NCBI GenBank assembly: GCA_001662655.1
Contig: KV460207.1
From: Pseudogymnoascus verrucosus
Taxonomy: Eukaryota
Reading direction: 5' to 3' (one strand)
DNA: 64,000 nt
Within the stretch, counting starts at the first letter, position 1, and each line of letters begins with the position of its first letter. This document shows positions 31,527 through 64,000 of the stretch, one piece after another. The position numbers and the translations under genes are program-made. The notes below the pieces were generated by a model. The model did not search any database. It was not told where the DNA came from and was given only the letters and a program-made list of their open reading frames with translations.

Positions 31527-33222
31527 ATGAAATTCCTTGCCACTACCGCCCTCATCGGCGCTGCGACCGCTGCTGTTGCTCCTCAACAGCATGTCTTCAA
31601 GAACCCGTTCCACCAAGAGCCGATCGTTGGTGACTCCAAGGCATCGCCTTCCTGGAGCTCATTGCTCGGTCCGCTGGCGGAGAGCATGAATAACATGGGC
31701 GCTGAGGCGAAGGCCGTCTGGGACGAGGTGACGATGATGTTCCCCGAGCAGATGAGCAAGGCAAACTTCCTGTCGTCTCCGAAGCCAAGCAAGAAGAGAC
31801 CGGATAGCACATGGGACTACATCGTGAAGGGTGCTGATGTACAAGGTATTAAGATTATGAATGAGAATGGCGAGGAAGAGAGGGCTATTGATGGCCACCT
31901 TGACTCGTACAATCTGAGAGCTAAGCACGTTGACCCAAAGAAACTGGGCGTTGATACTGTGAAACAGTACAGCGGCTATTTGGATGACGAGGAGAACGAT
32001 AAGCATCTCTTCTACTGTAAGCACCTGACAACCCAAAGTACACGAATCTTGACTAACATTATTAGGGTTCTTTGAGTCTCGCAATGATCCGGTCAACGAT
32101 CCCGTCGTTCTCTGGCTCAACGGCGGCCCAGGCTGCTCATCCCTCACTGGTCTCTTCCTTGAGCTTGGCCCATCATCCATCGATAAGGACCTTAAGCTTC
32201 ACAACAACCCATACTCTTGGAATGCCAATGCATCTGTCATCTTCCTCGACCAGCCCGTCAACGTCGGTTATTCCTACAGCGGTGGCTCTGTCAGCAACAC
32301 CGTTGCTGCAGGAAAGGACGTATATGCACTCCTCACCCTCTTCTTCCAGCAATTCCCCCAGTATGCGAAGCAGGACTTCCACATTGCTGGAGAGTCATAT
32401 GCCGGCCACTACATCCCAGTTTTCACCTCCGAGATTCTCTCGCACAAGAAGCGCAACATCAACTTGAAGTCGATTCTCATCGGCAATGGCTTGACTGATG
32501 GTTTGACTCAGTACGAGTACTACAGGCCTATGGCCTGCGGTGATGGTGGCTGGCCAGCTGTTCTCGGGGAAAGCGACTGCAAAGCTATGGACAACTCCCT
32601 TGCACGCTGCCAGTCTCTGATTGAAAGCTGCTACCAAAGTGAGAGCGTCTGGTCCTGCGTCCCTGCCAGCATCTACTGTAACAACGCCATGATGGGCCCA
32701 TACCAGCGCACTGGACAGAACGTGTACGACGTGCGCAGCAAGTGCGAAGACAGCTCTAATTTGTGCTACTCTGCGCTCGGCTGGATCTCTGAGTTCCTCA
32801 ACAAGAAGGAGGTACAGGCCGAGCTTGGTGTCGAGGTCTCTTCGTACGATTCGTGCAACTTTGACATCAACCGCAACTTCCTGTTCCAGGGTGACTGGAT
32901 GAAGCCCTTCCACCGCCTGGTCCCAAGCATCCTTGAGCAGATCCCAGTGCTTATATACGCTGGTGACACCGACTTCATCTGCAACTGGCTCGGTAACCGT
33001 GCCTGGACTGATAAGCTCGAGTGGAACGGACGCAAGGACTACAAGTCTGCCGAGACAAAGGATCTTACGATGGGCGAGGAGAAGACCGGCACTGTCAAGT
33101 CGAGCGGGAACCTCACATTCATGAGGATCTTCGCCGCTGGACATATGGTGCCAATGAACCAACCCGAGCCCAGCTTGGATTTCTTCAACAGGTGGATCGG
33201 TGGCGAGTGGTTCAACAACTAA
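31527..33222 (+). CDS. PRC1: Carboxypeptidase Y (S10 serine carboxypeptidase) preproprotein; one intron near 32017-32065
   Basis: Signal and propeptide, [45 protein letters not shown]. Confidence 0.95.
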
Positions 33223-44900: not shown

Positions 44901-45036
44901 GTTTAAGTTCTGGAAGAAGAGGGAGGCGGGTGGGGGTGGTGGGTTTGGGGGTGGGGGGATGCACCAGGTGCAGCCGCCGCCGATGCCGAATGTTATGGGG
45001 AGGAGGGGCAGGGAGGGGGGTGTGTCGGTTGGTTGA
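41973..45036 (+). CDS. PDE2: High-affinity class I 3',5'-cyclic nucleotide phosphodiesterase (PdeH/Pde2-like); 4 exons
   Basis: PYHNFKHVVDVLQA, AIGHDIGHPGVNN, LESYH, ILSTDM, LIKCADISN, EFSRQ; introns near 42158-42254, 43104-43197, 43788-43836. Confidence 0.92.
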
Positions 45037-46294
45037 TGACTTTGAGGTGGATGTCCAAATGGTGGGGGGGTTGTTTATATGGTGTGTGGTCCGGAGTGAC
45101 TGTAATATGTCTGGATGCCGGGCGTTTTCATGGCGCGCGAAGAACACACAGACGGCGTTTTTATTTTTTTGAACGTTGTGTTTGTGTTTGTTGAGCCCAC
45201 AACCACGACGACGAACTCCCCCCGCCTGCCGACTTCGACATTATTCTTTTATACCTTTTTTGTTTTTTTGGGGTGGGGGGAGAAAGAGATGGGAGATGGG
45301 CGGACAAAAGGAGAAATGAGCGAAAAGGGTGGGAAGGGTATATATGGTTAACGGACGGACGGATGTGGATATGGCTTTTATGGCGAAAAACCCCGAACTC
45401 TTACTTACTCGATTGATGATGATGGGGACGGTTTTTTTTATACACAAAACACAACGAGATGAGGGGGTTTTACAAAGGGAATGGTGTGGATTATGGTATA
45501 GGACATGACCTGACCGGAAGGGGGGGAAGGGGAAATCGACAGTTGGCGGCTATAAGGGGGGGAGAGGGTTGTACATAGGTTTTTTTCTACGCCCTGCCTG
45601 CTGTGGTTTTTCTCCTTCCCTCGACGTTCTGTTGTATTCCGGGTCGGGTGGCTTTAACTTCTAGTTTTTCTTTTTGTTTTTTTCTTCTGTCGATATTCTT
45701 TTTTAGAGGGGGGCTGGGGGGATAGGATGGGGGAACGGTATTCATAATTGCTGTTATGGATTTTGGGTTGGGGTTTGAAGGATTGGGAGGGGGCCATGGA
45801 TTAGGGGGGTTGGGGGAGTAGGGATCGGGGAAGGGGATAAAGGATAAGAGGGGGTAGGGGCGGAAGGGGTATTGATACCAGACAGACTATGAATGAATAG
45901 CAATTACATTACATCACATCAAGTTGATAGGCGTGCGTGCGTGCGTGTGTTGTGTTGTGAAGATACGAGACCACCTAACCTTCGCAGAATAGCAACGGCC
46001 GTCTTGGTCCTAGGATGATGCCTGTCTATCTATGTTCCATACACACACACATACCTCCTTCCTGAAGACGTTAATGGCATACGCACGGGTTTCGGTGTTG
46101 ATGCGCGACATATCTCTCGCTCTCATCCCTGTGATGGGAGGGAGTTGCGCAGGGGGGATCCGTTCGTGGATGTCGGGGTCGCCGGCTTTTTTTTTCGAGA
46201 AGGCGGGGGGATGTGTATGCGGATGCGGATGCAGGGTGGCGGGTTATTGGGGGGGTTAATTTCCTGTGCCTGGGTTTTTGGGATGGAGGTTTGT

Positions 46295-46452
46295 GGGGGG
46301 GGGGGCGCGGGGGTGGGGGGGGGGGGGGGGGGGGGGGGGGAGACGTGGGGGGGGGGTGGGGGGGGGGGGGGGGGGGGGGGTGGGGGGGGGGAGGGGGGGG
46401 GGGGGGGTGGTGGGGGGGGGGGGGTTGGGGAATTTTGGGGGGGGGGGGGGGG
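46295..46452. repeat. Very long poly-G low-complexity tract
   Basis: Interrupted G runs over about 160 bp, some longer than 20 nt; may be partly a sequencing artefact. Confidence 0.85.
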
Positions 46453-49260
46453 TATTTGGGGTGGCGGTGGTGGTGTGTGTGAAGGTAGTGTTTGTGTGGT
46501 GTGGTGTTTTCAGATGTGGTGATGTTGCTCCCCGATGGCTTTGGGGTGGGTGAGGACGGATCTATCGACATAGTAGGTGGTTTCTTCGTGGTGTCCTCAT
46601 CTGTGGTGATGTGTCTGTGGTGATGTGGCTCTTTGATGTTTGTCTTTTCTTCTTCTTCTTCTTCTTCTTCGTCTTCAAATTGTAAGAACGGGTCAAACGG
46701 CATTGATCAAACGGCACTGATTCACCTTTCTACGTGTCTCTTTCTGTCCCTATGTGTCTGTAACGACACAGGCAGCTCACACCGAGTATCGGGATCGTCG
46801 AAGGGGGGGGGGGGGGGTTTAGGGCATGCTGTGGGGTATGGTGAGGGATATGAAAGTTTTCCATTTGTTCTAGCGCGCACGTAGATGTTGATCTCTGCTC
46901 GGAGTGTGGCCGAGCGGATTGGGTCCGAGCACGGCGGTGCGGGTGTGGAGGGTGATGTTGCCACTGGGGACGAGGTTGTGGATGGGGGGTTGGAGTGGTG
47001 CGTGGGATTTGAAGATTGCTTTGGATTTAATAGTCACGCGGGCTTTGGTTATTCTGGTATGAGGACTCATACTTCATACTGGAACAGTGGAATAGTGCGG
47101 TCTGAGACGAATATATGGTGGTGGTGGGACAGCGCGAATACTCTGTTCTCATATGTTGCACAAAGCTGCAACCTTCACCATTCCACGAGACCACACCGAC
47201 AGACGCGGCCAGAGAAGTGACTCGGAACCTTCCGTCAAACTATCGATGTATGGGGAAGGTGATTGGGAAGGTGACGAGGAGGCGGCGGTAGTGGCGCCGA
47301 TGGCGGCGAGATATGATAATGCTAGCCGCTTGGACCTGTCCGAAATGGCTGTAGTTGATCCCTCGCTCGTTTTCTACCCCGGATTTTTGTTAGTAACGCT
47401 GCAGTCTTGCTTGTCTTTGATGGTTACTTGGTTTTAGTTGGAAAACGTGATCATTTTTGTCGGCTGGGATGGTGTGTGCTGTAGCTAGACGCGCGTTGCC
47501 CCTCTTATCCCCAATGTCATCCATCTTGCAACACGTTAGCCCAGTTTGTTTTAAATTACTTATTCGTAAGTTGAGAAACATTTTCATTTTTGTTGCTGGG
47601 ATTCTGCTGCTGCTAGCTCGTTCGCGGTGGAGGCTATCTACATAGCAAGTAAACATCATGTCGTAACGTAGCTGAAGGCATATGTTTGAAAGACCTCCTA
47701 AAATAAACCTGGGAGTGAGTGAGGCTTTGCGGCCCCCATCTCGAAGGATTCATATCCTACAATTATCACCAAGTTTTTGCTCGCGAATGGGGTAAACCAG
47801 CACCGAGACGTCATAAGAACAAGGTTGTTTATCCTGGTATTTAAGCTTTACCAAAGGAAAGTCTGGCGGAACCCGCTACTGTTGCACGTGTTGGAATAAA
47901 TGGAGGCAGCAACGCATGGATGATGTTCCAGCATTGGGATTGAGTTTATGTAATTGCTTATGGCTGTGAATGGTAATCGCATGACAATATCTAAATCCTA
48001 CGCTACCTACGAGCGGGCATGATCCCCATTACCAAGAGCAGCGTATCTCTTCTTTGATGCTTGTCATGTCAAGCCCCCTGATCCCAAAGGTCTTGGCTTG
48101 ATTCTTGCCATGGAAATGTTGCGTGTAGTGCCAATAGTTCCTCCTTTCTGGCCCTAGAATCCCTGCAACTCAATTGGGCCGCTGCATGCCATCGAATCCT
48201 CAACGGCACCATCCACCATCCCGCGCCTTAACGCTAAATCCTATGCCCACTAAACGCCTTGACACTAGAGTAGCATACCGCTGAATCAATCTCCACCGTT
48301 CCTCCTTCCTTGTTCCTGCTGCTGAATTGTCCTCAGCCCCGTACTAAGACAGGGCCCTTCGCTCTCCACACCCTCACTCACCCTCTCCCCGCACAAGGCT
48401 ATTAGGATCGTCCACGCTGACAACCTTGCATGGCCCAAACGGGTATTCTCAGAGGCATCTCATGCGAGCAAGCCTGACCCTTGCGACTTGCTGAAGTCCA
48501 AACAAAAGGACAGGGTGGCGCCTACAAGCTCTCTCACTGGCGCTACTTAGGTAACAATACGACGCCCCAGTTGGCAAGGGGGCGTGAATCAACCAATCGC
48601 ATAAAGTTCTCGTTTCTGATTCGGTTAAATTCAATGCTAGGCGCGATAGCGTGTTGCCAATCTATTCTTAATTTAGCCTCGCGGGACTCGCGGCTTACGA
48701 TCTGCAAGCCCGCTAAATGCTCCTGAATCCTTCGAGATCCTATTTCATGCGAAAGCTGGCAATAACAGCACCACTATGGCACGTCACTAATGGCTGTTTC
48801 CGTTGCTGGTCGCCCTCATTTCAGCCACTTACTGCATTTTTATTTTGGTCATTCCACTGCCATTATGCTTAAGCGTTAGGGTCCCTTGTTATTCGGGCTA
48901 CTGCTCCACCCACGAACCTTATAACTAACATCCTATAAGGAATGGATTTGCACACCACTGAAACTTGAGGATACAGGCTTCATATCGTCATGACGTTTTG
49001 GCTCACTTTGTGTTGTCTGTCATCCTGGCCGTCTCCCTGGCCGTCGCCTATCACCTGAGAATAGCTAATTTCGACAGCTCAACGACACTAGACGGGAATG
49101 GTAGGAGCAGCAATGGAGAATGCGAAGACAGAAGGAAGGGAAATGGGAGAGCAATATTCAGCTACGACTGGAGCATAAATAGAACCCTCATCGCCCGAAT
49201 TATTCTCATTATCCATCAGCCAATTCACCTTTCAAAACTCCAACGCCTCTACTTGCAATC

Positions 49261-50407
49261 ATGAAATCTTTTGTGGCTATCGCCGCCTTCGCGGCATCCA
49301 TGCCAGCTGTCCTGGCTGCTCCATCTGGCCAGGACCTCAAGGAAGTCAACGTCGTTATCCAGCGCCTCAAGGGGACCGCTGAGACTGACGTGGCTATTGT
49401 CGACAAAGAATCGTCTGAGGTTCTCGGATACGCCTGCTCCGACAAGCTCGACTCTGGTGCCTTTGCCAAGTTCCCAGTCTCTGCGGATATCAACGAATAC
49501 GGAGCTGGTACTATCACTCTCGGCACTACAAAGTACACAGTGCATGAAGACCCCAACGTCTCCGGTGGTGTGAGCTGCATGAAGATGTACGATGAACAGG
49601 AGATCTTTGTGACCTGCGCGGCCACTATCCCTGCCTCTCTCCAGTTGGCTCCATTGAGCGCCAGGGATAAGACGGACTGCTTTGCTAGCGGTAGTTCACC
49701 CATTTTGCAGAGCCTAGCGAACTCCATGTCTGCTCAAATCGCGACACCGAGCACCAAGCCGCGCTCTGTCGAGGATGCCCCACGCTCCCTCGAAGAACGC
49801 CAGGGAGCTTGCGGCACTTGGTCCAGCTACACTGCACTTGAAGGAGACGGAGACCCTCACCAGAACTACTACTTGAACCAACTCAGTGTGAGTCTTGATA
49901 TAAGTAGTGCTTCTCGATGCAAAGGTTAACAATGAATTAGGAAAACATTGAGTGCGGATCATCACCTAGCTGTGCTGTCGGGCACGAGGAGAGCAAGAGC
50001 TACACTATCGGATTCTCCGTTTCTGGAAGCATCGACTCGTGGATCGGCGGCGGTTTCGATGTTAGCGAGTCCTGGACAACCGGCAACGAGTACACCTGTT
50101 ACGGTGCTGCAGGCGATACCGTCTGTGTCTGGTACAAGACCGCGCTCACGGCTTACACAGTCAGAAACTACGACTATAACCAGTGCACGGGTGCATCCCC
50201 AAGAGGCACGGCAGTAATCAAGGTATGCCATCCCTCCCCGACCAACCCCCCCCCCAACTCCCCCCTTCACACGACAGCCTCACTGACCCTTCGAAGTCGC
50301 CAAACAATAATAATAAAGGTGGAAACTACTACTGTGTTATGGGATCTGCGTGCCGAAGCCAGGGAGAGGGATACTTCGACCTGAACGGCCGGGCTGGTGG
50401 CCCATGA
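49261..50407 (+). CDS. Secreted Cys-containing protein of unknown function; exons 49261-49887, 49941-50222, 50297-50407
   Basis: Signal MKSFVAIAAFAASMPAVLA; two phase-0 canonical introns give an open frame ending GEGYFDLNGRAGGP*. Confidence 0.88.
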
Positions 50408-50949: not shown

Positions 50950-52660
50950 TGGATAGTGAGAAATGAAAAGATGGCAAGAATGAGAAGGGACAGCGAGAAA
51001 GAAACGCGGAGGGTGAGAAAGGGGGGATGTTGAGACAGGGGGGGTGGTGAGAATAGTAAGGGGCGGTGAGAAGGGGGCACTGAGAAAGGGAAGGGGAGCT
51101 CAGAAATGGGTAATCGGCTGAAGATGATATAACATATAGTAGCCTAGGAATTAGATGGCAGTGTAAGTTTTACCTAGACCCATTCCGTCTACAAGCATAC
51201 CGCCTCCGGCTGTCAACTTCACAAGCGTCGAAGTAGCCTCTTTTATATCGTCCAAAACATCATCTAGAAGAATAATGCAAATAAAAATCCCAATTTCCGA
51301 GCTTTGTTGTACTTTCTGACAAAGATGTGCTTGCTAGGTATGTACACCTATTATAGTAAGAATTGTAAAGGAGGGGGATTCCCATACATTACGTTTTATA
51401 TAATGCGAACAAGTCTCAATAGTGATGGGGCAAAGGATATGTCACTGTGAATATATTGGGCGCAGCGGCCTAGCAATCTATGAAAATGTTTTGCCGTTCT
51501 CGTCCACACACAAACGCTCGCATAGGCCCTAGCGACTAAAGATCTTTGCATACCTCAACTCATCTCAATAGACTTGACGTTGCCCTTGGGGAAGGTTGGT
51601 ATAACCGGCCATGCAATGGATATGAGGAGGCTATGGGAAAGTGGCTTCAATGCCTTTGATTTTGCGGACCTAGTCTGTCACGATGGGAACCCCGGGTATT
51701 TCGCCACTAACCAGCCGTGCTTGGAATTCTTATTGTACGGTTTGCCAAAGGTTAAGTACAGTGGTGAGAAAAGGAATTGAGAAAGTAGTGAGAAAATTGG
51801 GTGGGGGGTGAGAACAGAAAAGGGCGGTGAGAAAGAAGCGGGGTGGTGAGAGAAGGGTAGTGAGAACGGAAGTACGCGCAACGAAAAAGGGGTAAAGTTC
51901 GCAGCAATCCGTGTTGCGAGCAGGGAACTGGGTTTGCAAACACACGCCTGTGACCTTCATCGAGAATTGCTACTTTGGAGAAACCCTAGCACGAAGACGT
52001 GCATACCTCTTCGTGAATTTTTATAGGATGAGCACAACAAGATTCCCCGCAGCTGTAAAACTATGGGGCCTTGGCCCTATATTAGATGCTCTCATTAACC
52101 AAAGGTGATGGGACAGCCCAGCCATCGAGACAGTGGCACGTTGCCATTGGATGGGACTGCGGACAAGAAAGGAGTCGATGGATGGATTATGCTATAAAGG
52201 AAACGATCAATGAACTACTGTATGGAGGCCTTCTAAAAATTTCAAAAATTCAAGATCGAATTTATGGCTATAAATTCTTCTTTGCCAACCTGGGCTCTGA
52301 AGAACGGCCGAACATGGATCACGGGGAGGTTCTATCCGAGGCGTTCTTTGATGGTATTATATATCATGCTGTAGGTTTGTGCAGCAACAGTGAGAAAGAG
52401 GACGACAAAGGAGGTCGTGGGTATGTAGTAAAGAATAACATGTAGCATGAGTAGTGGTGAGAAAGGAGAGGGGTGGNNNNNNNNNNNNNNNNNNNNNNNN
52501 NNNNNNNNNNNNNNNNNNNNNNNNNGGAGAGGGGTGGTGAGAAAGGAGGGGGGTGGCGAGAAAGGTGCGGGGTGGTGAGAAAGGAGAAAGATGGTGAGAA
52601 AGGAGAGGGGTGGTGGAAAAGGCAGGGGGTGGTGAGAATGGGGAATGGCAAGAGGGAGGG
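50950..52660. repeat. Three dispersed arrays of a GGTGGTGAGAAAGG-type minisatellite (about 50950-51100, 51760-51865, 52450-52660); the last contains an N gap at 52477-52525
   Basis: Recurrent [GA]GTGAGAA core with about 19-bp spacing. Confidence 0.8.
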
Positions 52661-52945
52661 CCGATGATGCATGGTTTACTAGGAGCGATCTATTACTACG
52701 TACTGCCAGTATGCCGACCCTGTAAGTGTCTTCATGAGCATGAATATTGCTCCAGTTAATTGTGACTCGAGGAACTCAATTTTTCATCTGAAAACTGAGC
52801 TGAGGGGGGATTATATTTACTGTGCTCGGCACAGTGAATGCATGAGATTAGTCAGAGTTATGGGTAGAGAAACTTTGAACTGCAGAGATTATGTTTTGTT
52901 ATGTTTTGTAATTATATTGGGCGTATATGTCATCTATCATCCAAC

Positions 52946-53284
52946 CTAAGCATTCCTCGTCTGTCCAGCAACGCCCTGGGCAGCCTGCTGCCCCTGTCCC
53001 ACTGCACCTTGAGCAGCCTGTCCCCCCTGTCCCGCTGCGCCCTGGGCTGCCTGGCCGCCCTGTCCGGTTGCTCCTCCTACAAGCCCACCAACTGTGTTCG
53101 TTGCTCCACCAGCGATGTTCCCAACACCCCTCGTGGTCTGTCCGACGGCCTGTCCTGCGCCATCGACTGTCTGCCCAACGGCGCCTGTTACACTGCCGAG
53201 AAGTCCACCCTTTCCTTGTGCCTCGTCACCACCGGTAAGGGTGTTGTCAAGCGAGTTGGTAAGGTTTCCTAGGAGTCCAGCCAT
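52946..53284 (-). CDS. Small Gly/Gln/Ala-rich LEA-like protein (112 aa)
   Basis: ATG in CTCAAAATGG context after an AC-rich leader; repeats GQTVDGAGQAVGQTT and GQGGQAAQGA x3; TTAAAT upstream. Confidence 0.8.
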   Translation of the reverse strand: MAGLLGNLTNSLDNTLTGGDEAQGKGGLLGSVTGAVGQTVDGAGQAVGQTTRGVGNIAGGATNTVGGLVGGATGQGGQAAQGAAGQGGQAAQGAVGQGQQAAQGVAGQTRNA

Positions 53285-54805
53285 TTTGAGTAGTGTTTTG
53301 AGTTTTGAGGTGTTGGTTTGTGGATTGGTTTCGTTTGGTTTGGTTTGTTGTGAGGAAGTGATAGGTATGTTGCGAGTGTTTGTGAGTGATAGTGACTGTT
53401 CTCGTTGATGGAAGGGAGGGGATTTAAGTACCCATTCGGATATTCTATTCCTCCAAGGCGAACCTGGCCGAGCTGAGGGAATGACGAGATATCCAGAATC
53501 TGTCGTCATAACCTCTTCCCATCCCTTCAATATCGAAGTATCTCCATGCTTCTCTACATCATTGTCCAAGCTTCACATCCCAGGAAGTACCCTCACCAGC
53601 CACACCTGGCCATAACCTGACTTGCGTTCGCCCCGCATGTCTCGGCAACACGGCAGCACGAAAGGCGGGATGGCAACCTGCTAATGCGCCGTATGTCCCG
53701 CGTCGACCTTCCCTGGCGGCGAGTCAATGTTGGATATTAGTTGACGATCGGAATGTCAGAGGCGGGGTTTGCGCAGCCACAGAAGGCCTCGCCAACGTTG
53801 TTATACTCTACGGCACAGTGTATGTATGATGTCAAAGTGGAGGGCAGCTGCCTGGCCATGGTTGAAAGGCAGGGAAGGGCGCATATGGTGACACTTGTTG
53901 TTGGCGATCTCCCCATATATCCTCCACATTGTGTGCCTGTCGTGGTTGCACAGCTTGCGTGGCTAACTGACTAGTTGCTTCCGCAGAGTCCTTCTTCAGA
54001 GTCTGGACAAGAAGACATTGCGTCGATCGCGGCACATATCTACGTTCCTCTTTCCGCCCCTTGTAAGTGACTCGTAAACAATATACTTACAGTGTGTAAT
54101 GTATTACTACCTACACCCCCTCATACTAGTATGACGATGCTCAACCAGGGCGAGAGCGATATGTGGGGATTGTTGAAACGCCTCTGTGGGGCAAGCCACA
54201 CAGTTGTGGGGCACCACATGGCAGCGAAGCGAATTACAAGCGTGGTCGTGAAATTAAGGTTCTTAGCGCTTCGGTGCTATTTTGGTTAGCGAACCACTAA
54301 TCAATACTGGGTTTTAGTGGGGCACAGAGTATGTAATAATACAAGAAACCGGTTTCTAGATAGCTAGCAATACGTGGCATCGGGCCAACATTGAGTTATT
54401 GACCCGGATGATTAAGATATTAGATATTTTGTGTGAATATTATGGCGGTACGGTTAACGGGTTGCGCTTTGGTGGGAGAACGCAGAGAGGAAGTTGTTAG
54501 CGATTTGTACTATATTTCAGAGTAGCGAAAATAAAATAAATTTACATGGTAAATTGAATTAATATTTTGTAGTGAGAAATCCCATTACTTTTTTTGCGGA
54601 AGAGGTGAAATATTACTTTGTGAAATTAGGGTATTATTTATTCTTAATCCTCCACAGTAGGAAACAATATATATCGCCGTTACTTGGGATATTTAAATAA
54701 GACATAACTCGGTGCCCATGAGCTCATCCTAATGCCCAGAAAATGCCAATACGATTACAGATGTGCGTAAACTACAGTGCGCCGTTGAAACTCCAGATAT
54801 TATTC

Positions 54806-55772
54806 TCATTCCCTTCGCCGAATTAGCAAATTCATCAGGTCTAGGTCGGCATACAAGAGAAACTCACAAGAAGGTAATCGTCACGTCCCCCTTTATAGCG
54901 GCTTTAAAGAAGACTTCAATCTCAAGATTGATGTCTAACCGTATAGATATCGGCTTCGGCTTTTCTGTCTTCTCCCCTTCTCCGCCCCCTTTCTCGTCCG
55001 CATTCTTTTTCTTGGCCCCCTCCGCCTCTTCTCCCCGATCAATCGATATCCCAATCGGCGGCCCCTCACCCCGTAGCCTTCTGATATTAAACGCACGAAG
55101 ACCTGTATCAGGCGCCTTTCCCTTATTTTCTTGCGTCGAATTATGGTCCTCCGCTACTGCCTTGCCTTTATCGCTCTTCTCAGGCGGTGGGCTTTGACGG
55201 TGTGGTGCCTCTCGTTGCGGCGACGCTGCTTTTCCTTCCGGAGGACCAGCCATCTCCTCTCCCAATCTTCCCACCCTCTCAGACCACGGAACTTGCGCCT
55301 TGGCCACGGCCGCCATACCTCCCTTCTTCTTCTTCCGCCGTTCTCTCTTATAACTGCGCGGTCGCGACGACGACGCGACAGACGCGTTATCCGACATCTC
55401 GCCCGGTTTTGACATCTCCTTCTTTTCTTTCTGCCCATTTACTTGTCCTGCAGGTAAATCTTCGAGCCCGCTCATCCCCTCATCTAGTCTCTCTGACCAC
55501 GGCAAACGCGCCTCTTGCGCCGGCGCCATGCGACTGTTCTTCTTACGACCACCACGACGGTGTCGGCGCGAGGATCCGATGGACGCATCGTCCGAGACTT
55601 CGCCTACGCGTGTCGTTGGCGGGATCGCTTGGTTCTGGGCAGGAAGGGCTGGTTCGTTGATTTTGAGGTTTCGTAGTGCCTGGTCGGGGGTGCCATCGTT
55701 GGCCATACTGGGCGAGTTTCGTGGGCGCCCGGTATTGGATCGTCGGGTTTGAATGGGAGATTGGGAGCTCAT
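54806..55772 (-). CDS. Disordered basic protein with C-terminal amphipathic beta motif (ISIRLDINLEIEVFFKAAIKGDVTITFLE)
   Basis: Long ORF; probable terminal intron 54867-54813 (GTGAGT..CTAAT..AAG) adds E*; internal duplicated SDxASxxSS...PWSER unit; start could be further upstream. Confidence 0.78.
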
Positions 55773-55950
55773 TTGCAGGGGGGTTGTTTGTTGAGTTGGG
55801 AGCGCCAGGCAAGATGGCGTCGTGGGATAGAAAGTTCCGAGGCCAGAATCGATTTTGCGTTTGCGTGATCGACGTGGATCATGGGAGGGCCTTTTTCGCG
55901 TTCTATTCAAGTAGGGGCGTTGTTCCTTGCGGGATGTGGGTCTACGAGCG

Positions 55951-56075
55951 GGTACCTGGTATTTTGCCTCCCTAGATAGCTATGTACATGTTACATGTTA
56001 CATAGCTATCTAGGGAGGCAAAATATACATGTTACATGTTACATAGCTATCTAGGGAGGCAAAATACCAGGTACC
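55951..56075. repeat. Perfect 36-bp inverted repeat with an internal 41-bp tandem duplication
   Basis: 55951-55986 is the reverse complement of 56040-56075; 55985-56025 equals 56026-56066. Confidence 0.92.
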
Positions 56076-56409
56076 ATGGGAGAGAAGAGAGTCTGCATAA
56101 GTCGGCTGCAGTGCGGAAGGCCAGGACAGTAACTCTCGACACATTTTCCATTAACATCTAACTATTGTGATGTCTAGTCCTCGTACATATATGGTTTCGT
56201 GGTGACATCACAATATGCAGCTAGTTTACCCGGGCTCGGCAGAGTGAAACACCGGTACTTTAGCACGATTTGCTTGTAACTATGTAACTAAAAATACAGG
56301 CCCTGATTCCCACCCCCCTCATCGTTGTTGCAATTATTCTCTCCATGAACACCAAACCCAAACCTAAAAATCCCACATCATATATCCTTTCTTCCCCTGT
56401 GATATCATG

Positions 56410-56538
56410 GCCGCGTAACTCTATTACTAAATACCCACAACGCAGGACCGGCAGCTCTCACAGAAGGCCAATCGCCGCGTAGCTCTATTACTTAACACCC
56501 ACAACACAGGACCAGCAGCTCTCACAGAAGGCCAATCG
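56410..56538. repeat. 64-bp tandem duplication covering the end and 3' UTR of the distal terminal exon
   Basis: GCCGCGTA.CTCTATTACT.AA.ACCCACAAC.CAGGACC.GCAGCTCTCACAGAAGGCCAATC occurs twice with a few mismatches. Confidence 0.85.
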
Positions 56539-56586
56539 TCACGTCTCCCTTCACTCTAGCGTAGAGGTCAACCTGAGGCAAAGTTA

Positions 56587-57121
56587 CTACATTAATCCAA
56601 TGGTAACATCTCCCTTCACGCGAGCGTATAAATCTACCTGTGGTGGGAATTAGCCATTGAATTTGAATTCAATGGTAACTAGGGGTTCCTGGGGGTTGGG
56701 GATAGACCTACCTCAACTTCGAGATCCAGCTCGATCTTGATCTTCAAGCTGCTGTCCCGCGTTTCCTTTGACACTGGGCGGTCCTTGATGCGTGACTCTC
56801 GGATTGCGCCTGTTGGCCCGCCCATATTGCCCGTTAGACGCTGCTGATCGTTTGCCGGTATCATCTGTTGGTTTTGGTATTGAGGAGCTGGGGGCTCGTT
56901 CTGGCTGCGGTTTTGGCGCGCTCGTTGCATGGTGCGTTGGCCTTTGGGTTGCGCCGGGACAGGCTGCTGTTGCTGTTGTTGTTGTTGTTGTTGTGGCTCT
57001 TCTTCAGTCTCTGAGTGGACATCGTCACTGGCATAATCGGCGTTTTGCTTTTCGCTTGGGGAGAGACGGTCAGCACAGGTGCGCTGGTGAGAACGAGAGA
57101 ACTTGCTTACTTTTCAGACAT
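56587..57121 (-). CDS. PolyQ disordered protein with C-terminal beta motif SSLKIKIELDLEVE-VDLYARVKGDVTIGLM; alternative terminal exon at 56572-56522
   Basis: Exons 57121-57111, about 57054-56712, 56637-56587 with canonical splice signals; tail paralogous to the neighbouring gene. Confidence 0.85.
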
Positions 57122-57904
57122 TGTGAAGGTTGTGTGGTGATGAGCGAACTAGTATTGAAAAGATATGAATATATGCAAGTTGGTTCGTAAAATCAGATGC
57201 GTATTTTCTATAATGAAGAGAGAGTATTCGAGGGCTTAAAGGAATCCGATTATATATAATAATGTGATACCGCATCTGCCATGGAATTCCCCACGTATAA
57301 CTACTTGCATGAGTAATGACGCTGGTGGTGCGTCGTCAGGGCCTGTGGATCATCAAGATCCCTGCAGCCGTATCCGCCGTTGGCTTGCGAAATCAGGTTC
57401 TCTGCACAAGTCAGGTATTGTGGCTCTGTGGCTGAAGTTTCGGACCTGGTCCGGAGTAACAGACGGGACAGCAACCCACTAGCATATGGGCCACTAAGTG
57501 GTGGAACACGAAATTGCGGAGAGTAGGAGGCTGGACACATATGACGTCGTATTTGCATACTCCGTACAAGGTTCCACTATGTATCTCCATGAAGACCCCG
57601 CGTGAGTCTAGATTGTGAACCGGGATACATGGGAAATACGAATTATCTATTGGCCTTTCCATAATACAAACTCCCATAAGACGCAAGGTTGCATCGTGGT
57701 GATGTCAGAAGGGTGGCCTGTAGAAACAGTGTCAACCTAAAAAAAGATCGTTGCGGCTCAGATTGCAGACTGATCAAGTCTGCGCTCCCACGAATGTAGC
57801 GCGCTACAAGATATACTGAAAATCTGATCGTAACTCACTACTAGCGTTAGTGAGAGCTTAATACTATTACGCACACCTTCTTGTCGCAAAAACGAAAGAG
57901 CGTT

Positions 57905-58760
57905 ATGGTTCTCGGAATTATCACCTCAATAGCTGCGTGTCCCGCCATAATTGGCACGACAGAAGCTATCCGGCAAGGCCAGCGCCAGAATGCGCGTGAG
58001 CAGCATCGCGGGCGAAAATCCAATCTCCTTGTATCCTGCTCCGATCCTTCACGGAAAGCAAGGGATATCAACGGAGGAACCATTGTGCTACGGAACAACA
58101 AAGTAAGGAACCCCATCGCAAGTCTGCAGAAAACCTCAAACGAAGACTGACGAAGGCGCGCTTGGTTAGCTCTATGTCACCACCGTGAGCCCCCGTGGCA
58201 GGGCCGCAAAAGAAAGGAGAGAATACGAAAACGAGAAGGATCCAGGCCGATTAAATGAGCGCGGCCATCTTTTTGCTGGCTATTTCTTTGGATATCCAGA
58301 CACAAAATGGGGCCGCCGAGGGGATGGTCTTGTGTCTACAATCTCCGATGACCCCCCTCAGCTGAACTGGATATATGTGGACAAAGACACATACGAAGTG
58401 AAATATGGCCTACGCGTTCAGGCAGAGGGAAACCTTGTTGGGCCGTGGAACTGCACGCCAATTGATAAACGGTTAACACTGGAAGGGTGGGAAGGGTTTA
58501 CGGTTGTAGAAGAGGAGGAGGATGTATGGGCACTGTATTTTGACAAGGATGATGATGGGCTAGAGGAGAAGGTAGAGCCGAATAGGAGGATTATGGAGAT
58601 TGAGTTGATAAGGAAAGAGATGAGGATAGGGAAGGAGGAAGTGGATATGGCGGAGCAAGAAGAGAAGTTACGGAATGGAAACGAGGTGAAGAACAAAAGG
58701 AAAGGTGGGGAGAACGAAGAGAAGAATGAGAAAGATAAGAACAGTACTCGTGCGGCATAG
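57905..58760 (+). CDS. Hypothetical protein with globular aromatic-rich domain; exons 57905-58102, 58170-58760
   Basis: MVLGIITSIAACPAIIGTTEAIRQGQ..., GHLFAGYFFGYP, GLVSTISDDPPQLNWIYVDKDTYEVKYG, GPWNCT, EGWEGF, WALYFDKDDDGL; phase-0 intron. Confidence 0.85.
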
Positions 58761-58939
58761 AAATCTTAGTAGATACATATTCAAGAATTATGAAGTTTAC
58801 GATTACAACTTGATAGACATCATGAGCTCAGCAACGATGATAAATTAGCAAGATAATAAAAATCACCAACAATAAGAAACTTGCCAGACAACACAAACCG
58901 ACAGACGGTGAGAAACTCGCGATAAAACGGACTACCAAG

Positions 58940-59587
58940 TTCAGAGATTATTAACCTTTGCTATTTCCATAGAGATTGGAAGCCGATGACCTCATATAGG
59001 CGCTGTACATGATACTATTTGCAGGACTGAGCTGAACATGGTTCGAAGCACTGCTTTGCCCTCAGAACGATTATCGACCTGATACTATCTAACCACCCCC
59101 ACACGCCCCCTTACCTAAGAAAACAAGTCTACTTTACCATTATGACATCGGCCCCTTGATCCATGTCTCAGACCCTGCAGAGCCGGATCAACGCCGAAAT
59201 CTTGATTCTGACTCTTAGCTCCCCTATAATTAGGGTATTAACAACAGTGTTACAAGTGTGCAACTCTGTTTACTGAGCTGCGCTCAGTAAATCCAGATAC
59301 GGCACTAGGAAGGTAATATTCATGCATGTCACTATATACCCTGCTATACTGCTATAGTATGTGGCATCCCCGCCACCCCCGCCTCCCACACTTATCTCCA
59401 CACCTCCTTACCCACGCATCCCTGGCGCCGAAATCAAGGAAAACGCCACTTATCTATAGTTCTGAGGGCAAAGCAGTGCTTCGAACCATGTTTAGCTCAG
59501 TGCTGCAAATAGTATCATGTACAGCGCCTATATGAGGTCATCGGCTTCCAATCTCTATGGAAATAGCAAAGGTTAATAATCTCTGAA
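58940..59587. repeat. 129-bp inverted repeat pair flanking a 390-bp spacer (foldback/MITE-like)
   Basis: 58940-59068 is the reverse complement of 59459-59587 with 2 mismatches; no obvious target-site duplication. Confidence 0.9.
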
Positions 59588-59643
59588 GTCGAACACGGGA
59601 GCCATTAGACACTATCAAATACGCGGACAGATATACACACATC

Positions 59644-59982
59644 ATGGACTGGGCAAGGCAGAAGTGTTCCTCTTACTACGATTCCAGCTGGCGCTGGATC
59701 GAAGACACCTATCTCGCCTACTTTGGAGAGAACAGGACGTCGTACGGCATAAAAGGTGAGAACTCCCCAAAGATTTTTGCTTTTGGATTGCTTGGGATGA
59801 AAGAGAGAGTACTAATGAAATTTGTAGAGTCACTGAAGAAGACAGAGGTCACAGGTGATGAAAATATAGATGGGATTCAGCGCGGGGTTGGGGGAGCTGT
59901 GGGAGATGTATTTTCGAGTAAAGGGCCTGCAGGCGTGGTAGGAGATGGTATCGATAAAGGCCTTCTGAGAGGCAACGTCTGA
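59644..59982 (+). CDS. Small (about 88 aa) protein with W/Y-rich N-terminus and Gly-rich LEA-like C-terminus; intron 59756-59827
   Basis: MDWARQKCSSYYDSSWRWIEDTYLAYFGENRTSYGIK-ESLKKTEVTG...GVGGAVGDVF; intron GTGAGA..CTAAT..TAG. Confidence 0.8.
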   Translation: MDWARQKCSSYYDSSWRWIEDTYLAYFGENRTSYGIKGENSPKIFAFGLLGMKERVLMKFVESLKKTEVTGDENIDGIQRGVGGAVGDVFSSKGPAGVVGDGIDKGLLRGNV

Positions 59983-60127
59983 GGGAGCCTGTACATGCAA
60001 GTTGGATATGATAGTAGATTGATAGTTCACCATTTGCTTCGAATTTTCAAATTCATCGTTATTTAATAAGTTACCTACCTTATATCTAGCATGAGGCTAT
60101 AAGAATGAAATACCACCTTATCTCCTC

Positions 60128-61429
60128 CTACTGCTGCGACGCCCCCGGAATCTTGATCGTTACAGTTGTTCCTTCCTTCGTCGTCTGCACATTGATCTCT
60201 ATCCCATTCGCAGTAATCCCAATACCTCCACCCCCGCCGCTCTGAAGCACAGTAGAATTTCCCGCTACACGACTCGAACCCGCTCCCTTCGTATCTCCAT
60301 CGCCATTACGAACATCCACCTGAGAAACATCGAGCGTATCCGTATCGTCTCCAAAGACCGCATCAGGCTTCGCAACGAGATCCTCGAGGAGACCCGGGAC
60401 CTTTTCTCCTGTTGTGCCGCCAGCTACAGGTGTAATCTTCTGTTCCTTGTGTTTACTGCCCTTGGTTGGCTTTGACGCGTTGTTTGTGGAGATAGGAGCA
60501 GGGTTGTTTGCTTCGTCGTTCGTACTTCCTAACGGTGCTGAAAAGCTATCGCTATGCTCATTTTGCATATCCTGTTCCCCATCTGTGACATAACCATGTC
60601 CCCCTTCGCTATGCCCTTCGTAGTCTTCATCTATATCGTCATCGTGGGGTTCGTGTTCCCCATCCCAATCGCTACCTGCTTCATTATGGCCCTCTTCCTC
60701 GCTATATCCAAGCTCGGGCTCTTCTTCATTGCCTGATTCTTCGTGGTAGTTATTTTTGTTTTCTTCGTCTTCATTATCTTTATGTTCCACTTCATCATGA
60801 TCAGATACAGCCTCATATTCGCGCTCCGGTTCTTGTTCTAGTTCGGGAGGTGGAGGCGCGGGCTTCTTCCTCTTCACCGACTTTGGTGTTTCTCCAAAGT
60901 CGAGATCCAGTGCCTTGAACTTTGGCGTCCGCTTTTCAACATCGTTTTGAAAATGGTTTGGTTCTTGCAGAGGTTGTGGCGCCTGTTTCTTAACCCTTTT
61001 CACTTCACTTTGAGTTCCATCAACGTGGTCCCGCTTTGCAGTCTCAACATCTACCGGCGGCGAAGTTTTTTTCACTTTCTTAACAGCTGTTTTTGCTGCG
61101 TCCCCCTGACCAGAAGTGGCAGCTTTAAATTTGGGAGGCGGTGCGTCAGTTGTAGGCTGGCGTTTTGAGCTTCGGTCAGGGGTTGGAGTCTGAGGGAGCT
61201 GGTCTTCCAATGACTTGGGCGGCTTTGGCCGTGGTGTCTGCGGAGAAACTGCATTATTTGGCGTCGTAGTGTCTGCTTTTACCTTTTGAGATGGAACACG
61301 CCTTTTTACTACATTTCCTGCATCGGGTTGTGTCGAGGTCATCTTCTTTATTGAGTCTGGAGATTTAGGAGTTCCGTTGGCCTTATCGGTAGGCTTGAGC
61401 GGCGTCCGGGGTGCTTTGGGGCTGGACAT
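60128..61429 (-). CDS. Large disordered Pro/Lys-rich then acidic protein with C-terminal beta-hairpin-like tail (GIEINVQTTKEGTTVTIKIP); may extend to 61702
   Basis: Open frame of more than 430 codons with a biased but protein-like composition; start ambiguous (61429 vs 61702). Confidence 0.7.
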   Translation of the reverse strand: MSSPKAPRTPLKPTDKANGTPKSPDSIKKMTSTQPDAGNVVKRRVPSQKVKADTTTPNNAVSPQTPRPKPPKSLEDQLPQTPTPDRSSKRQPTTDAPPPKFKAATSGQGDAAKTAVKKVKKTSPPVDVETAKRDHVDGTQSEVKRVKKQAPQPLQEPNHFQNDVEKRTPKFKALDLDFGETPKSVKRKKPAPPPPELEQEPEREYEAVSDHDEVEHKDNEDEENKNNYHEESGNEEEPELGYSEEEGHNEAGSDWDGEHEPHDDDIDEDYEGHSEGGHGYVTDGEQDMQNEHSDSFSAPLGSTNDEANNPAPISTNNASKPTKGSKHKEQKITPVAGGTTGEKVPGLLEDLVAKPDAVFGDDTDTLDVSQVDVRNGDGDTKGAGSSRVAGNSTVLQSGGGGGIGITANGIEINVQTTKEGTTVTIKIPGASQQ

Positions 61430-62979
61430 CGTGAATAGATCTTTAATACATAGTGTAGTGATAGCTAGAACTGCTAATATCCCAATGGTAATTTGAATAG
61501 TTGTTGGAGATGTTAAAAGATACCACAAGACAATCGTAGATATATAGAGGACGAGACTGATCACACTATCACTATCACGGGCCGCTAAGAAGGAGAACTG
61601 AGGTGATATCTTTCGTGTGATGAGGCTGCTACTCATCGCCATGAGAAGACTAGGTAAGAGCCGTAGAATTGTGGATAGAAGTTGACTTACAGGTTGGGAC
61701 ATACGATTTACTCATCATGTCCACTACTATTTCGTCACTTCACAGCGGTAAACTAGCCACTCGGAAGCACTGCAGGGGTTGCAGGAATACCTGCATGGTT
61801 CTAATGCCGCAGGTCTCGAGAACCGGTTTCCGAACAAAACCATGTTCACATCTCCAAGGTCAGGACGAATACTACGGTCCATATTAACAAACTAAAATCG
61901 AATGCTTAAAGTGATGTACCAGTACCACTGTATCCTCCCTACCACTCGTCATAACAGGTTCTTTAAGGCCGCCATACCGCCGTTCTTGATCGTCACGGAA
62001 TTGCTAAAACATGGCATATCCACCAGGGGGTAACCAGGGAAAGTCTTGCCGTTACCACGTTGTTTGTCGTGGATCTATTCATAGGGTGTGGCGATAAGCA
62101 AGTGGTGCGCCACATTTTTTGGCGATCAGTGCGGGGGTCTGCGCTAGGAGGTTGTCGTGGAGACGAAAGTTAAGTAATTGCTCCACATAAGCATCTGGCT
62201 AGAATACTTGCAATCGCAGGTACTAAATATCCTTATCAGGCCCCAGCCGTAGGAGATGAGCAGTTCCACTATAAGGGTGAGTCTAGACTAGTAACCAAAA
62301 GTCGAGGCAACCAAGGTCTAGGGGATTACGGGCTCGAGACTGAATCGTGACTAGGAACAAAATGGGCACTGAAACAGCAAGAATGATCTCAATGTGTAGG
62401 ATAAAGGCGGCATTGTCTATGTGGCTGGAAACCCCGCACTAGCTACGGGCTATGCAAGCCACAAGGTTTGTAGCTACATTAAATGCAGATACATATTAAT
62501 AGGGCCCAAAAATCATGATCTACTCCCTGCATGTGGGCTATCATGATGTGGATCTATCAAGGTTGCACTGTGGGTGTGGCACCCTCTTCTCTCTATCATG
62601 GATTCTAGCACATTGCACGCGTCTAAAGAAGCTCTGGTCGCTTCTTTTATGACGTCTCTGACGCCATTACAGGGCAAATATAGGGTAGAACAGGGATTTA
62701 ACAAGCATCTAGATCAATTGATGTGATGTCACTCAACCAGATTCTTAGAACTTGAAAGCCTCGTGGCGAAAAGGAAAGGCTAGTTGTTATCATCGAGGCG
62801 GACTTCATAAGAAGGCGTGGGCTCATCACCTAACACACTTATCATAAAACTTCAACCAAACGCACACAGCTACGAAACAACTACTGTACGAACCTATTAT
62901 ACCATATACACGCCACATTACTCATAGCTACAACATAACTTATACTTTGAGCTCTACATTTATAAAACAAGTGGCAAAC

Positions 62980-64000
62980 ATGACGGACGTTAAGCAGCAC
63001 TCGTTCAACCCTTCGCAGAAGTCTGGATTCGACGGCTCTGTAAAGAACATACAAAAGAAGACATCAGAGACTCAAGAGCAAGCACCTAGCGAAGTCGACG
63101 ATGTAGAGAGCCGTGCGGGCACAGAGTCTGTGGGAGGCGAGTCGCAGGCCATACAAGCAGGAAGCGTCGATAACGAAGGACATGTTATTGACGCCGATGG
63201 TCACATCATCGGGAACGTCACAGGGGAGAATGCATCACAGCTTGAGGGGTCTATCGTAGATCAACAGGGTGATGTGATAGATACCGAAGGAAATGTCATT
63301 GGAAGTGCGGAGCCACAGGAAGCCGGTGAAGCAGAAACCCCCGAGAAAGATCTTCCGGACGTATCAATCCTTGAGGGAAAGAAGGTAAACAAGGGAGGAA
63401 ACGTCGTTGACGACAGCGGCAAACTATATGGACGTATCGTCGACGGGGATATTTCTAAGTTGGTTGGAAAGAAGGTGGATTCCAGAGGAAAAATCTGGAA
63501 CGATTCAGGAAAAGTCATTGGAAGCGCGGAAGTGATACCCATCGATGAACGAGATGAGTCCTCTGGTGCACCCTTCGAAGATTTTCCCAATGCCGTCGTC
63601 AACAAGGACGGAACCGTCGCCTCGGATGGCCAGGTAGTTGGGAAGCTCGTTGACGGCGACGCTAAGAAACTCTCTGGCAAGAAGGTCGACAAGGATGGCG
63701 AGGTCATTGATAACGTCGGGAACGTTGTAGGAAAGGCTGAGCGATGGGAAGAAGAAGATGCCCCTGAGCCAGAAGCGGCCGATTTATCTTCTTTAGCTGG
63801 CAAGCGAGTGAATAAGCTAGGTAACGTGGTGGATGGCACAGGTGCCATCTATGGAAGACTCGTTGAAGGCGATCCCAAGAAGCTCGCAGGGAGGATGTGC
63901 GATAAGAACGGAGATGTTAGAGGCGAAGGTGGCGATGTTGTCGGCCGCGCTGAATTGGTTCCCGAGAGCGAGCGTGAAGGCATGAAGCAGGGACCATTTG
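62980..64000 (+). CDS. DUF3659-repeat ('LEA domain') protein, truncated by the window end
   Basis: Open frame from ATG 62980 with no stop, so absent from the ORF track; repeated LxGKxVNKxGNVVDxxGxxYGRxVxGDxxKLxGxxxDxxGxIxxxxGxVIGxAE units. Confidence 0.88.
   Translation, partial: MTDVKQHSFNPSQKSGFDGSVKNIQKKTSETQEQAPSEVDDVESRAGTESVGGESQAIQAGSVDNEGHVIDADGHIIGNVTGENASQLEGSIVDQQGDVIDTEGNVIGSAEPQEAGEAETPEKDLPDVSILEGKKVNKGGNVVDDSGKLYGRIVDGDISKLVGKKVDSRGKIWNDSGKVIGSAEVIPIDERDESSGAPFEDFPNAVVNKDGTVASDGQVVGKLVDGDAKKLSGKKVDKDGEVIDNVGNVVGKAERWEEEDAPEPEAADLSSLAGKRVNKLGNVVDGTGAIYGRLVEGDPKKLAGRMCDKNGDVRGEGGDVVGRAELVPESEREGMKQGPF

Follow-up and report, generated by a model that had tools for sequence, protein, structure and literature searches.

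Characterized gene clusters of fungi are mostly metabolic, and there are few descriptions of conserved neighborhoods whose genes have structural or protective roles. The hydrophilins and LEA-like proteins of fungal spores (DprA/B, An02g07350/Afu3g11550, Hsp12, and Con-6/Con-10) are small or repetitive, Gly-rich, hydrophilic, and predicted to be disordered, and an 11-residue periodicity is typical of group-3 LEA proteins. Fungal amyloid-signaling pairs (NWD2/HET-S) are encoded by adjacent genes and carry a short, highly conserved terminal motif of the beta type. Here we describe a locus that resembles these systems in part: a run of seven genes, g1 to g7, at positions 52946 to 64000 of a 64,000-nucleotide stretch of contig KV460207.1 of the cold-loving soil fungus Pseudogymnoascus verrucosus (assembly GCA_001662655.1; the whole stretch is called the window). 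As a preliminary description of the sequence had stated, none of the seven proteins has a catalytic, transporter, or secretion family in Pfam scans, and with no enzyme family among them, the core and tailoring enzymes of a secondary-metabolite cluster (polyketide synthase, nonribosomal peptide synthetase, or terpene synthase) were not found either. Two of the genes, g3 and g4, lack any functional annotation and are adjacent across lineages resembling five classes of filamentous ascomycetes. The genes are as follows.

g1: 52946-53284, minus strand; 112 amino acids, Gly/Ala/Gln-rich with 11-residue repeats and a conserved N-terminus, MAGLLGNLTNSLDNTLTGGD
g2: 54864-55772, minus strand; 302 amino acids, basic, disordered, ending in KGDVTITFL
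g3: exons 57111-57121, 56712-57054, and 56587-56637, minus strand; about 134 amino acids, acidic, Gln-rich, disordered, ending in KGDVTIGLM
g4: exons 57905-58102 and 58170-58760, plus strand; 262 amino acids, PF28325 (Beta_trefoil_fun)
g5: exons 59644-59755 and 59828-59982, plus strand; 88 amino acids, W/Y-rich in the N-terminal half and Gly-rich in the C-terminal half
g6: 60128-61429, minus strand; 433 amino acids from MSSPK, acidic, disordered, ending in GIEINVQTTKEGTTVTIKIPGASQQ
g7: 62980 to beyond 64000, plus strand; DUF3659 multirepeat protein, open at the window end

Like the amyloid-signaling pairs, g3 and g4 are adjacent and include a conserved terminal beta motif, but here the motif is common to the paralogs g2 and g3 and not to g3 and g4. 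By inspection of alignments, the N-terminus of g4 and the tail of g3 are unlike, and no NOD-like receptor (NACHT or NB-ARC), HeLo, or other execution domain was found in Pfam scans of the seven proteins. In composition, g2 and g6 fall within the limits used for hydrophilins, whereas g1 and g3 do not; g1 is like group-3 LEA proteins in its 11-residue periodicity, and none of the seven matches the LEA, dehydrin, or Con families of Pfam. The available text of PMC6730492, where the word "cluster" occurs 0 times, does not present known fungal hydrophilins as a conserved cluster, unlike the block of genes described here.

The conservation of the neighborhood was assessed in 80 metagenome loci fetched with a profile of g4, each with up to 10 kb on either side, and lineages were counted as distinct at 95% nucleotide identity. 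In all 45 loci whose upstream flank reached 1.5 kb or more, a gene of the tail family, to which g2 and g3 belong, was present no farther than 3 kb upstream of g4. The g3-g4 pairing was thus seen in 27 of the 27 distinct lineages that could be judged, divergently oriented in 23 and in tandem in 4, and these lineages resemble Leotiomycetes, Sordariomycetes, Dothideomycetes, Lecanoromycetes, and Eurotiomycetes, the class of each locus being guessed from likeness to the best named g4 relative. Across the loci, which total 752 kb, 64 tail-family genes were counted, 56 of them within 3 kb of g4; the remaining 8 were g2 orthologs, located 3.0 to 3.8 kb from g4, one gene further out, in Leotiomycete-like loci. 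As an internal control, the downstream neighbor g5 was kept in only 8 of the 27 lineages. Adjacent locus tags for g3 and g4 were also present in Chlorociboria (g7834/g7835), Scytalidium (g4897/g4896), and four Pseudogymnoascus strains. Between the window (56315-57257) and the closely related locus L006 (5815-6620), an inversion of about 0.95 kb takes in exactly g3; the flanks are collinear, and g3 still lies beside g4. This adjacency suggests a partnership of the two proteins.

Candidate scars lie near the g3 inversion, namely, a 36-nucleotide perfect palindrome pair at 55951-56075 and tandem duplications of 41 nucleotides (55982-56063) and 64 nucleotides (56407-56534). A divergent clade of g4 loci has its own downstream neighbor gene (L066 12170-13006, L067 11894-12853, L070, L071, and L077), without a Pfam family, and the tail proteins of this clade end in …GDITIGLY.

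Searches by tblastn and with hidden Markov models derived from the loci recovered the block g1-g2-g3-g4-g5(-g6)-g7 in the Leotiomycete-like loci L005, L006, L007 (the same as L040), L021, L024, L032, L033 (the same as L034), and L041. These loci had no match to the window outside the block, and window open reading frames upstream of g1 matched no locus. Because g1, g5, g6, and g7 do not occur within 10 kb of g4 outside Leotiomycete-like loci, the seven-gene unit is specific to that class, and the deep unit is the g3-g4 pair. The preliminary description had supposed that these families co-occur in other Pezizomycotina and had proposed a check of neighborhood conservation; the supposition holds for g3 and g4, and the check returned a conserved nonenzymatic block, confined to Leotiomycete-like loci.

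The tail of g3 is the most constrained part of the protein. Its last residues are ...SSLKIKIELDLEVE|VDLYARVKGDVTIGLM, where the bar marks the exon joint, and an alternative last exon at 56522-56572 encodes VDLYARVKGDVTIGLL. The KGDVTI ending that the preliminary description had noticed in two disordered proteins is indeed common to g2 (...IRLDINLEIEVFFKAAIKGDVTITFL) and g3 (...KIKIELDLEVEVDLYARVKGDVTIGLM), and in g2, which is a paralog of g3, the motif ...SIRLDINLEIEVFFKAAIKGDVTITFL lies within the last 30 residues. In a family alignment of 25 relatives ranging from Leotiomycetes to Coccidioides, nearly all of the 30 invariant columns fall in the last 53 residues, and the N-terminal half is free to vary. 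Hydrophobic and charged residues alternate over 16 to 18 positions in the strand before the KGD turn, and the beta hydrophobic moment of this strand is 1.06 in g3 (reached by 0 of 1,000 shuffles) and 0.84 in g2 (reached by 2 of 1,000). The last ~27 residues of g3, at the very end of the protein, are predicted to be an amphipathic beta-hairpin and are almost invariant. When 1.84 billion representatives were searched with a g3 profile, 249 proteins matched at E values up to 0.001. Among the 150 matches listed, which have a median length of 105.5 amino acids (longest, 279), the tail is the protein's own C-terminus in 108 of the 113 representatives that reach the profile end. No Pfam family was found on the g3 relatives among the 120 matches listed, and a profile search of solved structures gave 0 matches. 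We have seen few short tails as conserved as that of g3, which is carried on a disordered protein that otherwise evolves freely.

The splicing of g3 was visible in contigs of public runs (X3 to X5; described below), with the joint 57054|57111 in X4 and X5 and both spliced forms of the 3' end (56633|56708 and 56570|56710) in X3 and X4. The window carries two tandem-duplicated alternative last exons for g3 (56522-56637), the tails of which are alike except for the last residue (…IGLM and …IGLL). In all other loci, the tail runs on from the preceding exon without an intron.

The product of g4 is 100% identical to the hypothetical protein VE01_00777 of P. verrucosus (P0001), and its splice joint, 58102|58170 (GT..AG), was seen in an X3 contig. 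The preliminary description had called it an aromatic-rich globular unknown; this was superseded by its membership in a Pfam family, since PF28325.1 (Atlas name, Beta_trefoil_fun) is precomputed on P0001 and on all 120 relatives listed. The protein consists of a hydrophobic, uncharged stretch at residues 1 to 19, a K/R-rich flank, a beta-trefoil at about residues 36 to 219, and a charged C-terminal helix. It has 3 cysteines, a grand average of hydropathy (GRAVY) of −0.96, and a C-terminal helix that is long and rich in K and E. In an alignment of 15 sequences drawn from five classes, 59 columns are invariant, 15 of them within the first 45 residues. Across 48 sequences, the N-terminal 17-residue window has a median Kyte-Doolittle value of 2.14, and residues 20 to 40 have a median of 6 K+R against 2 D+E; P0001 itself has no charge in residues 1 to 19. 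An AlphaFold2 (AF2) model with a predicted local distance difference test (pLDDT) score of 69.7 gave VIA matches of which all 50 listed were beta-trefoils (Z of 6.2 to 8.3), the best being 4tlv_A (Z of 8.3, root mean square deviation of 3.6, 129 residues aligned). Foldseek with the model returned 0 matches in the PDB at E values up to 0.001, and the sequence profile gave 0 hits among solved structures at E values up to 1. We conclude that g4 has a beta-trefoil fold and a hydrophobic N-terminus. Described beta-trefoils include fungal lectins, mycocypins, MoErs1, and hisactophilin; among the listed trefoils, none of those inspected pairs a conserved hydrophobic N-terminus with a charged C-terminal helix, as g4 does.

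Of the co-folding of all gene pairs proposed in the preliminary description, one pair was run, consisting of residues 1 to 225 of g4 and a C-terminal piece of 66 residues from a Pseudogymnoascus g3. The score was 0.48, compared with 0.25 for the best of 3 controls, the runs shared 27% or more of their contacts, and the partner had a pLDDT of at least 40. In calibration, 51 of 78 solved complexes attained the mark used for such co-folds, as did 2 of 108 mismatched pairs; at scores of 0.60 or under, it was attained by only 5 of the 78 solved complexes and by all 4 of the passing mismatches (of 180). The model lends weak support to binding of the g3 tail by g4.

Among the outer genes, the g1 protein is 29.5% Gly, 17% Ala, and 13% Gln (GRAVY, −0.13). 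When compared with itself at a lag of 11 residues, it has an identity of 0.42, whereas shuffled sequences average 0.152 (standard deviation, 0.033; maximum of 500 shuffles, 0.257); the L007 ortholog, one of those found in 7 loci, has a value of 0.40. No Pfam family passes for g1, with CsmC reaching 10.8 bits, or 19.8 bits for the L007 ortholog, against a cutoff of 26.3. The g5 protein has no Pfam family, and its W/Y-rich half is conserved (YYD..WRWIEDTYLxYFGENRTSYG); its joint 59753|59826 (cut +2; GT..AG) was seen in X3, X4, and X5 contigs, and orthologs were found in 13 loci, every one Leotiomycete-like. In the Pseudogymnoascus-like contig L006 (9046-9156), exon 1 of the g5 ortholog is interrupted by an in-frame stop where a conserved Trp would be, which points to a pseudogene or else to an error of assembly.

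The last gene, g7, is a clear member of DUF3659 (PF12396; 267.2 bits, E value of 4.1e-81, 4 repeats, gathering cutoff of 24.8 bits), with orthologs in L007/L040, L021, L024, and L041; its profile gave 1 nonsignificant match to solved structures (E value of 0.92). The window g6 has no Pfam hit at E values up to 1, DUF3659 included, but is tied to g7 because its L007 and L041 orthologs carry one DUF3659 repeat each (64.2 and 52.7 bits, against the same cutoff). The start of g6 was set at MSSPK, although the frame is open to 61702, because the L007 ortholog begins at the equivalent Met. The hairpin-like tail of g6 was considered as kin of the g2/g3 tail and rejected (hhalign probability, 0.5%); taken over its full length, the g6 hairpin has a beta moment of 0.03 and by this crude measure is not amphipathic.

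Hydrophilin composition was defined as Gly above 6% and a mean hydropathy below −1, values that reportedly go back to Garay-Arroyo et al. in 2000. The values of g2 (GRAVY of −1.12, 9.9% Gly) and g6 (−1.25, 8.5%) fall within these limits, and those of g4, g5, and the g7 fragment do not. A screen for hydrophilins described in the available part of PMC6730492 combined a GRAVY below −1 with a glycine-content filter, for which 8% is cited as a cutoff. The preliminary description had given DUF3659 no known function, but the family is not entirely without characterization: one member, LdrD, is reported at lipid droplets in the accessible part of a preprint (bioRxiv 10.1101/2022.11.24.517872). This location is not transferable, because LdrD paralogs do not share it, according to the same text.

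We tentatively favor an explanation in which an anchored beta-trefoil has tail-tagged hydrophilic partners and the set was widened in Leotiomycetes by hydrophilin-like genes. Its core would be an ancient two-gene module, g3-g4, around which class-specific hydrophilin-like genes have been retained. In such a scheme, the N-terminus of g4 would anchor the protein to a lipid surface or membrane, leaving the trefoil toward the cytosol, and the tails of g3 and its paralog g2 would dock on g4 or co-assemble with it. Docking would display long, hydrophilic, disordered chains on that surface. In Leotiomycetes, g1 (with its 11-mer repeats), g5, g6, and g7 (DUF3659) would add hydrophilin- or LEA-like components, and the outer genes may be kept near so that they are regulated together; stress or dormancy would be the most plausible setting. 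The link to stress and dormancy is one of likeness, drawn from the hydrophilin composition of g2 and g6, the periodicity of g1, and published transcripts: LEA-like and dehydrin transcripts accumulate in dormant Aspergillus conidia, according to the available portions of PMC3563291 and PMC4869263 (Table 3). A more far-reaching version, which we regard as rather unlikely, is a tail-and-receptor system across the Pezizomycotina, in which a membrane-anchored PF28325 trefoil would read a C-terminal tag of ~27 residues and, in cells that are dormant or under stress, recruit a disordered coat to a membrane or organelle, with g2 and the repeat proteins as Leotiomycete additions. If the hydrophilin-like reading is correct, it would bear on cell-surface protection in spores and in cold-adapted fungi. 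If the pair is unrelated to stress, its adjacency still needs to be explained. In either case, two proteins that occur across the filamentous ascomycetes, including relatives of plant and animal pathogens, become open to direct tests.

A number of observations weigh against the anchored-trefoil explanation. The loci come from metagenomes, and they were assigned to classes by likeness alone. In Coccidioides immitis, the listed g3 homolog CIMG_07153 (on a 5.26-Mb contig) and g4 homolog CIMG_08489 (on a 4.32-Mb contig) are apart, which means that the two genes can become separated or that a paralog next to one of them is missing from the listing; the C. immitis proteins concerned (P0210 and P0263) are the sole case seen with g3 and g4 apart. 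The five genes other than g3 and g4 are absent within 10 kb of g4 unless the locus is Leotiomycete-like, and the orientation of g2 flips in several loci. In seven Helotiales-like representative loci, g5 and g6 are separated by a conserved additional gene of ~420 amino acids, unrelated to the others and without a Pfam family, which has no match anywhere in the window:

~420-amino-acid additional gene: L007 12187-13449, minus strand; same position in L005, L021, L024, L032, L034, and L041

No shared promoter motif was found: k-mers in 24 g3-g4 intergenic regions were no commoner than in controls (the top 7-mer occurred in 14/24 versus 12/24), and STRE, CRE, BrlA, and AbaA sites were not enriched over resampled sequence in the 5,754 noncoding bases of the block. 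The top 8-mer of these intergenic regions, ATGTCTGA, was rejected as a promoter motif, as it is the start of g3. According to the calibration of the co-fold, a score such as that obtained for g4 and the g3 tail misleads more often than not, except where the proposed pairing was likely beforehand. A signal peptide would be an equally good reading of the hydrophobic N-terminus of g4. By composition, g1 (GRAVY of −0.13) and g3 (GRAVY of −1.35, 5.2% Gly) fall outside the hydrophilins, and no LEA family, LEA_4 included, was found in Pfam scans of the seven proteins at E values up to 0.1 to 1.

Several of these observations would be expected if only g3 and g4 are linked functionally and the other five genes are unrelated orphans that lie nearby by inherited Leotiomycete gene order. 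We consider this explanation possible, if on the whole unlikely: the confinement of g1, g5, g6, and g7 to the vicinity of g4 in Leotiomycete-like loci (with g5 in 8 of 27 lineages), the additional gene of the Helotiales-like loci that the window lacks, the flipping of g2, and the lack of a promoter motif all agree with it, but the block outlasts its left flank, in that nothing in the loci matches the window upstream of g1, and its members are alike. In addition to the paralogy of g2 and g3 and the DUF3659 repeats shared by g7 and the g6 orthologs, 5 of the 7 proteins are low-complexity and hydrophilic. There is only a slight likelihood, in our view, that g4 is instead a secreted lectin or protease inhibitor of the beta-trefoil type with a signal peptide and that the pair acts extracellularly or in the wall. 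The structural neighbors of g4 include the secreted effector MoErs1 (Z of 7.6, root mean square deviation of 3.7, 131 residues aligned) as well as Kunitz-type inhibitors, macrocypin, and many lectins, and the N-terminus is suitably hydrophobic; a common fold, however, is no proof of a common function. Signal peptides usually drift in sequence, whereas 15 of the first 45 residues of g4 are invariant across the five classes aligned, and the protein is highly charged, with few cysteines and a long K/E-rich helix. By inspection, no hydrophobic leader was seen on g3 or the other partners.

The seven proteins might also be a lipid-droplet surface set, with g4 anchored by its N-terminus, g1 and the DUF3659 proteins binding the monolayer by amphipathic repeats, and the g2 and g3 tails lying as strands on neutral lipid, an arrangement that we judge improbable. 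Perilipins and apolipoproteins have an 11-residue periodicity, as does g1, and the strong beta amphipathic moment of the tail would suit such a surface; however, the 29.5% glycine of g1 is poor for helices. The L007 orthologs of g6 and g1 match Apolipoprotein (20.7 bits; cutoff, 90) and CsmC (19.8 bits; cutoff, 26.3), respectively, but both matches are under the cutoff and may reflect composition alone. LdrD of Aspergillus oryzae was placed at lipid droplets but its paralogs were not, as far as the accessible preprint text goes (bioRxiv 10.1101/2022.11.24.517872). The preliminary description itself had proposed that the seven proteins together build an intracellular assembly, whether shell, filament, or condensate, that would help spores survive or cells withstand desiccation, and this we now regard as the least probable of the explanations weighed here. 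Self-assembling beta-sheet peptides alternate hydrophobic and charged residues, as the g2 and g3 tails do over 16 to 18 positions; most members are disordered and hydrophilic, and the block is conserved in Leotiomycete-like loci. However, no homology to any shell or filament protein was detected (profile searches of structures gave 0 matches for g3, 0 for g4, and the 1 nonsignificant match for g7), the one pair co-folded lends weak support, and the seven genes are not together outside one class.

The literature searched, which included few subscription journals and no supplements, held no description of the g3-g4 pair or the block and no mention of PF28325, Beta_trefoil_fun, VE01_00777, CIMG_07153, or MBM_08639; for DUF3659/PF12396, it held the LdrD preprint only (bioRxiv 10.1101/2022.11.24.517872; accessible part). 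A search with the Monascus g4 homolog listed no Aspergillus protein among its 120 matches, which is not evidence of absence. The adjacent, conidia-enriched Aspergillus pair Afu1g13530/Afu1g13550 (in the available part of PMC4869263, Table 3) was considered as g3-g4 and dropped without sequence proof; Afu1g13550, of 143 amino acids with K116 and K140 (PMC7426169), does not fit the g3 tail.

The seven genes were found where the preliminary description had placed them and are supported as real and transcribed by their open reading frames, by cover in run contigs, and by spliced joints at predicted introns. Contigs from four public runs (X1, X3, X4, and X5), whose depth was not used to rank genes, cover all seven; g1 and g7 are covered in 4 of 4 runs, g2 partly by contigs of X1 and X3, and g6 partly by those of X1 and X5. 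The introns predicted from the sequence in g3, g4, and g5 coincide with spliced joints in these contigs. Bins without run contigs, which include 54124-54885, 57172-57552, 58696-59457, and 61744-62886, were not used as evidence. An exact lookup of the g1, g2, and g6 models in the protein collection gave no match, and the deposited annotation probably differs from these models or lacks them. An Rfam scan of 52000-64000 returned 0 families.

The following genes are recognizable upstream of g1, which is therefore the left edge of the run; the enzymes nearest to the seven genes are the phosphodiesterase at 43 to 45 kb and the carboxypeptidase at 32 to 33 kb.

32053-33222: serine carboxypeptidase (PF00450; Pfam)
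43185-45036: class-I cyclic-nucleotide phosphodiesterase, in two parts owing to an intron or a change of frame
49258-49929: small protein with an N-terminal hydrophobic, signal-like leader, by inspection secreted

A Pro-rich open reading frame at 46071-46706 (minus strand) may be noncoding. Between g4 and g5, at 58940-59587, lies an element resembling a miniature inverted-repeat transposable element; no further copy of its arm was found elsewhere in the window, and its terminal inverted repeats of 132 nucleotides are 98% complementary, with 384 nucleotides between them. A run of N at 52478-52525 is probably an assembly gap in a repeat, as it falls within a 19-nucleotide G-rich minisatellite that continues in 5 overlapping 57-nucleotide copies at 52526-52658.

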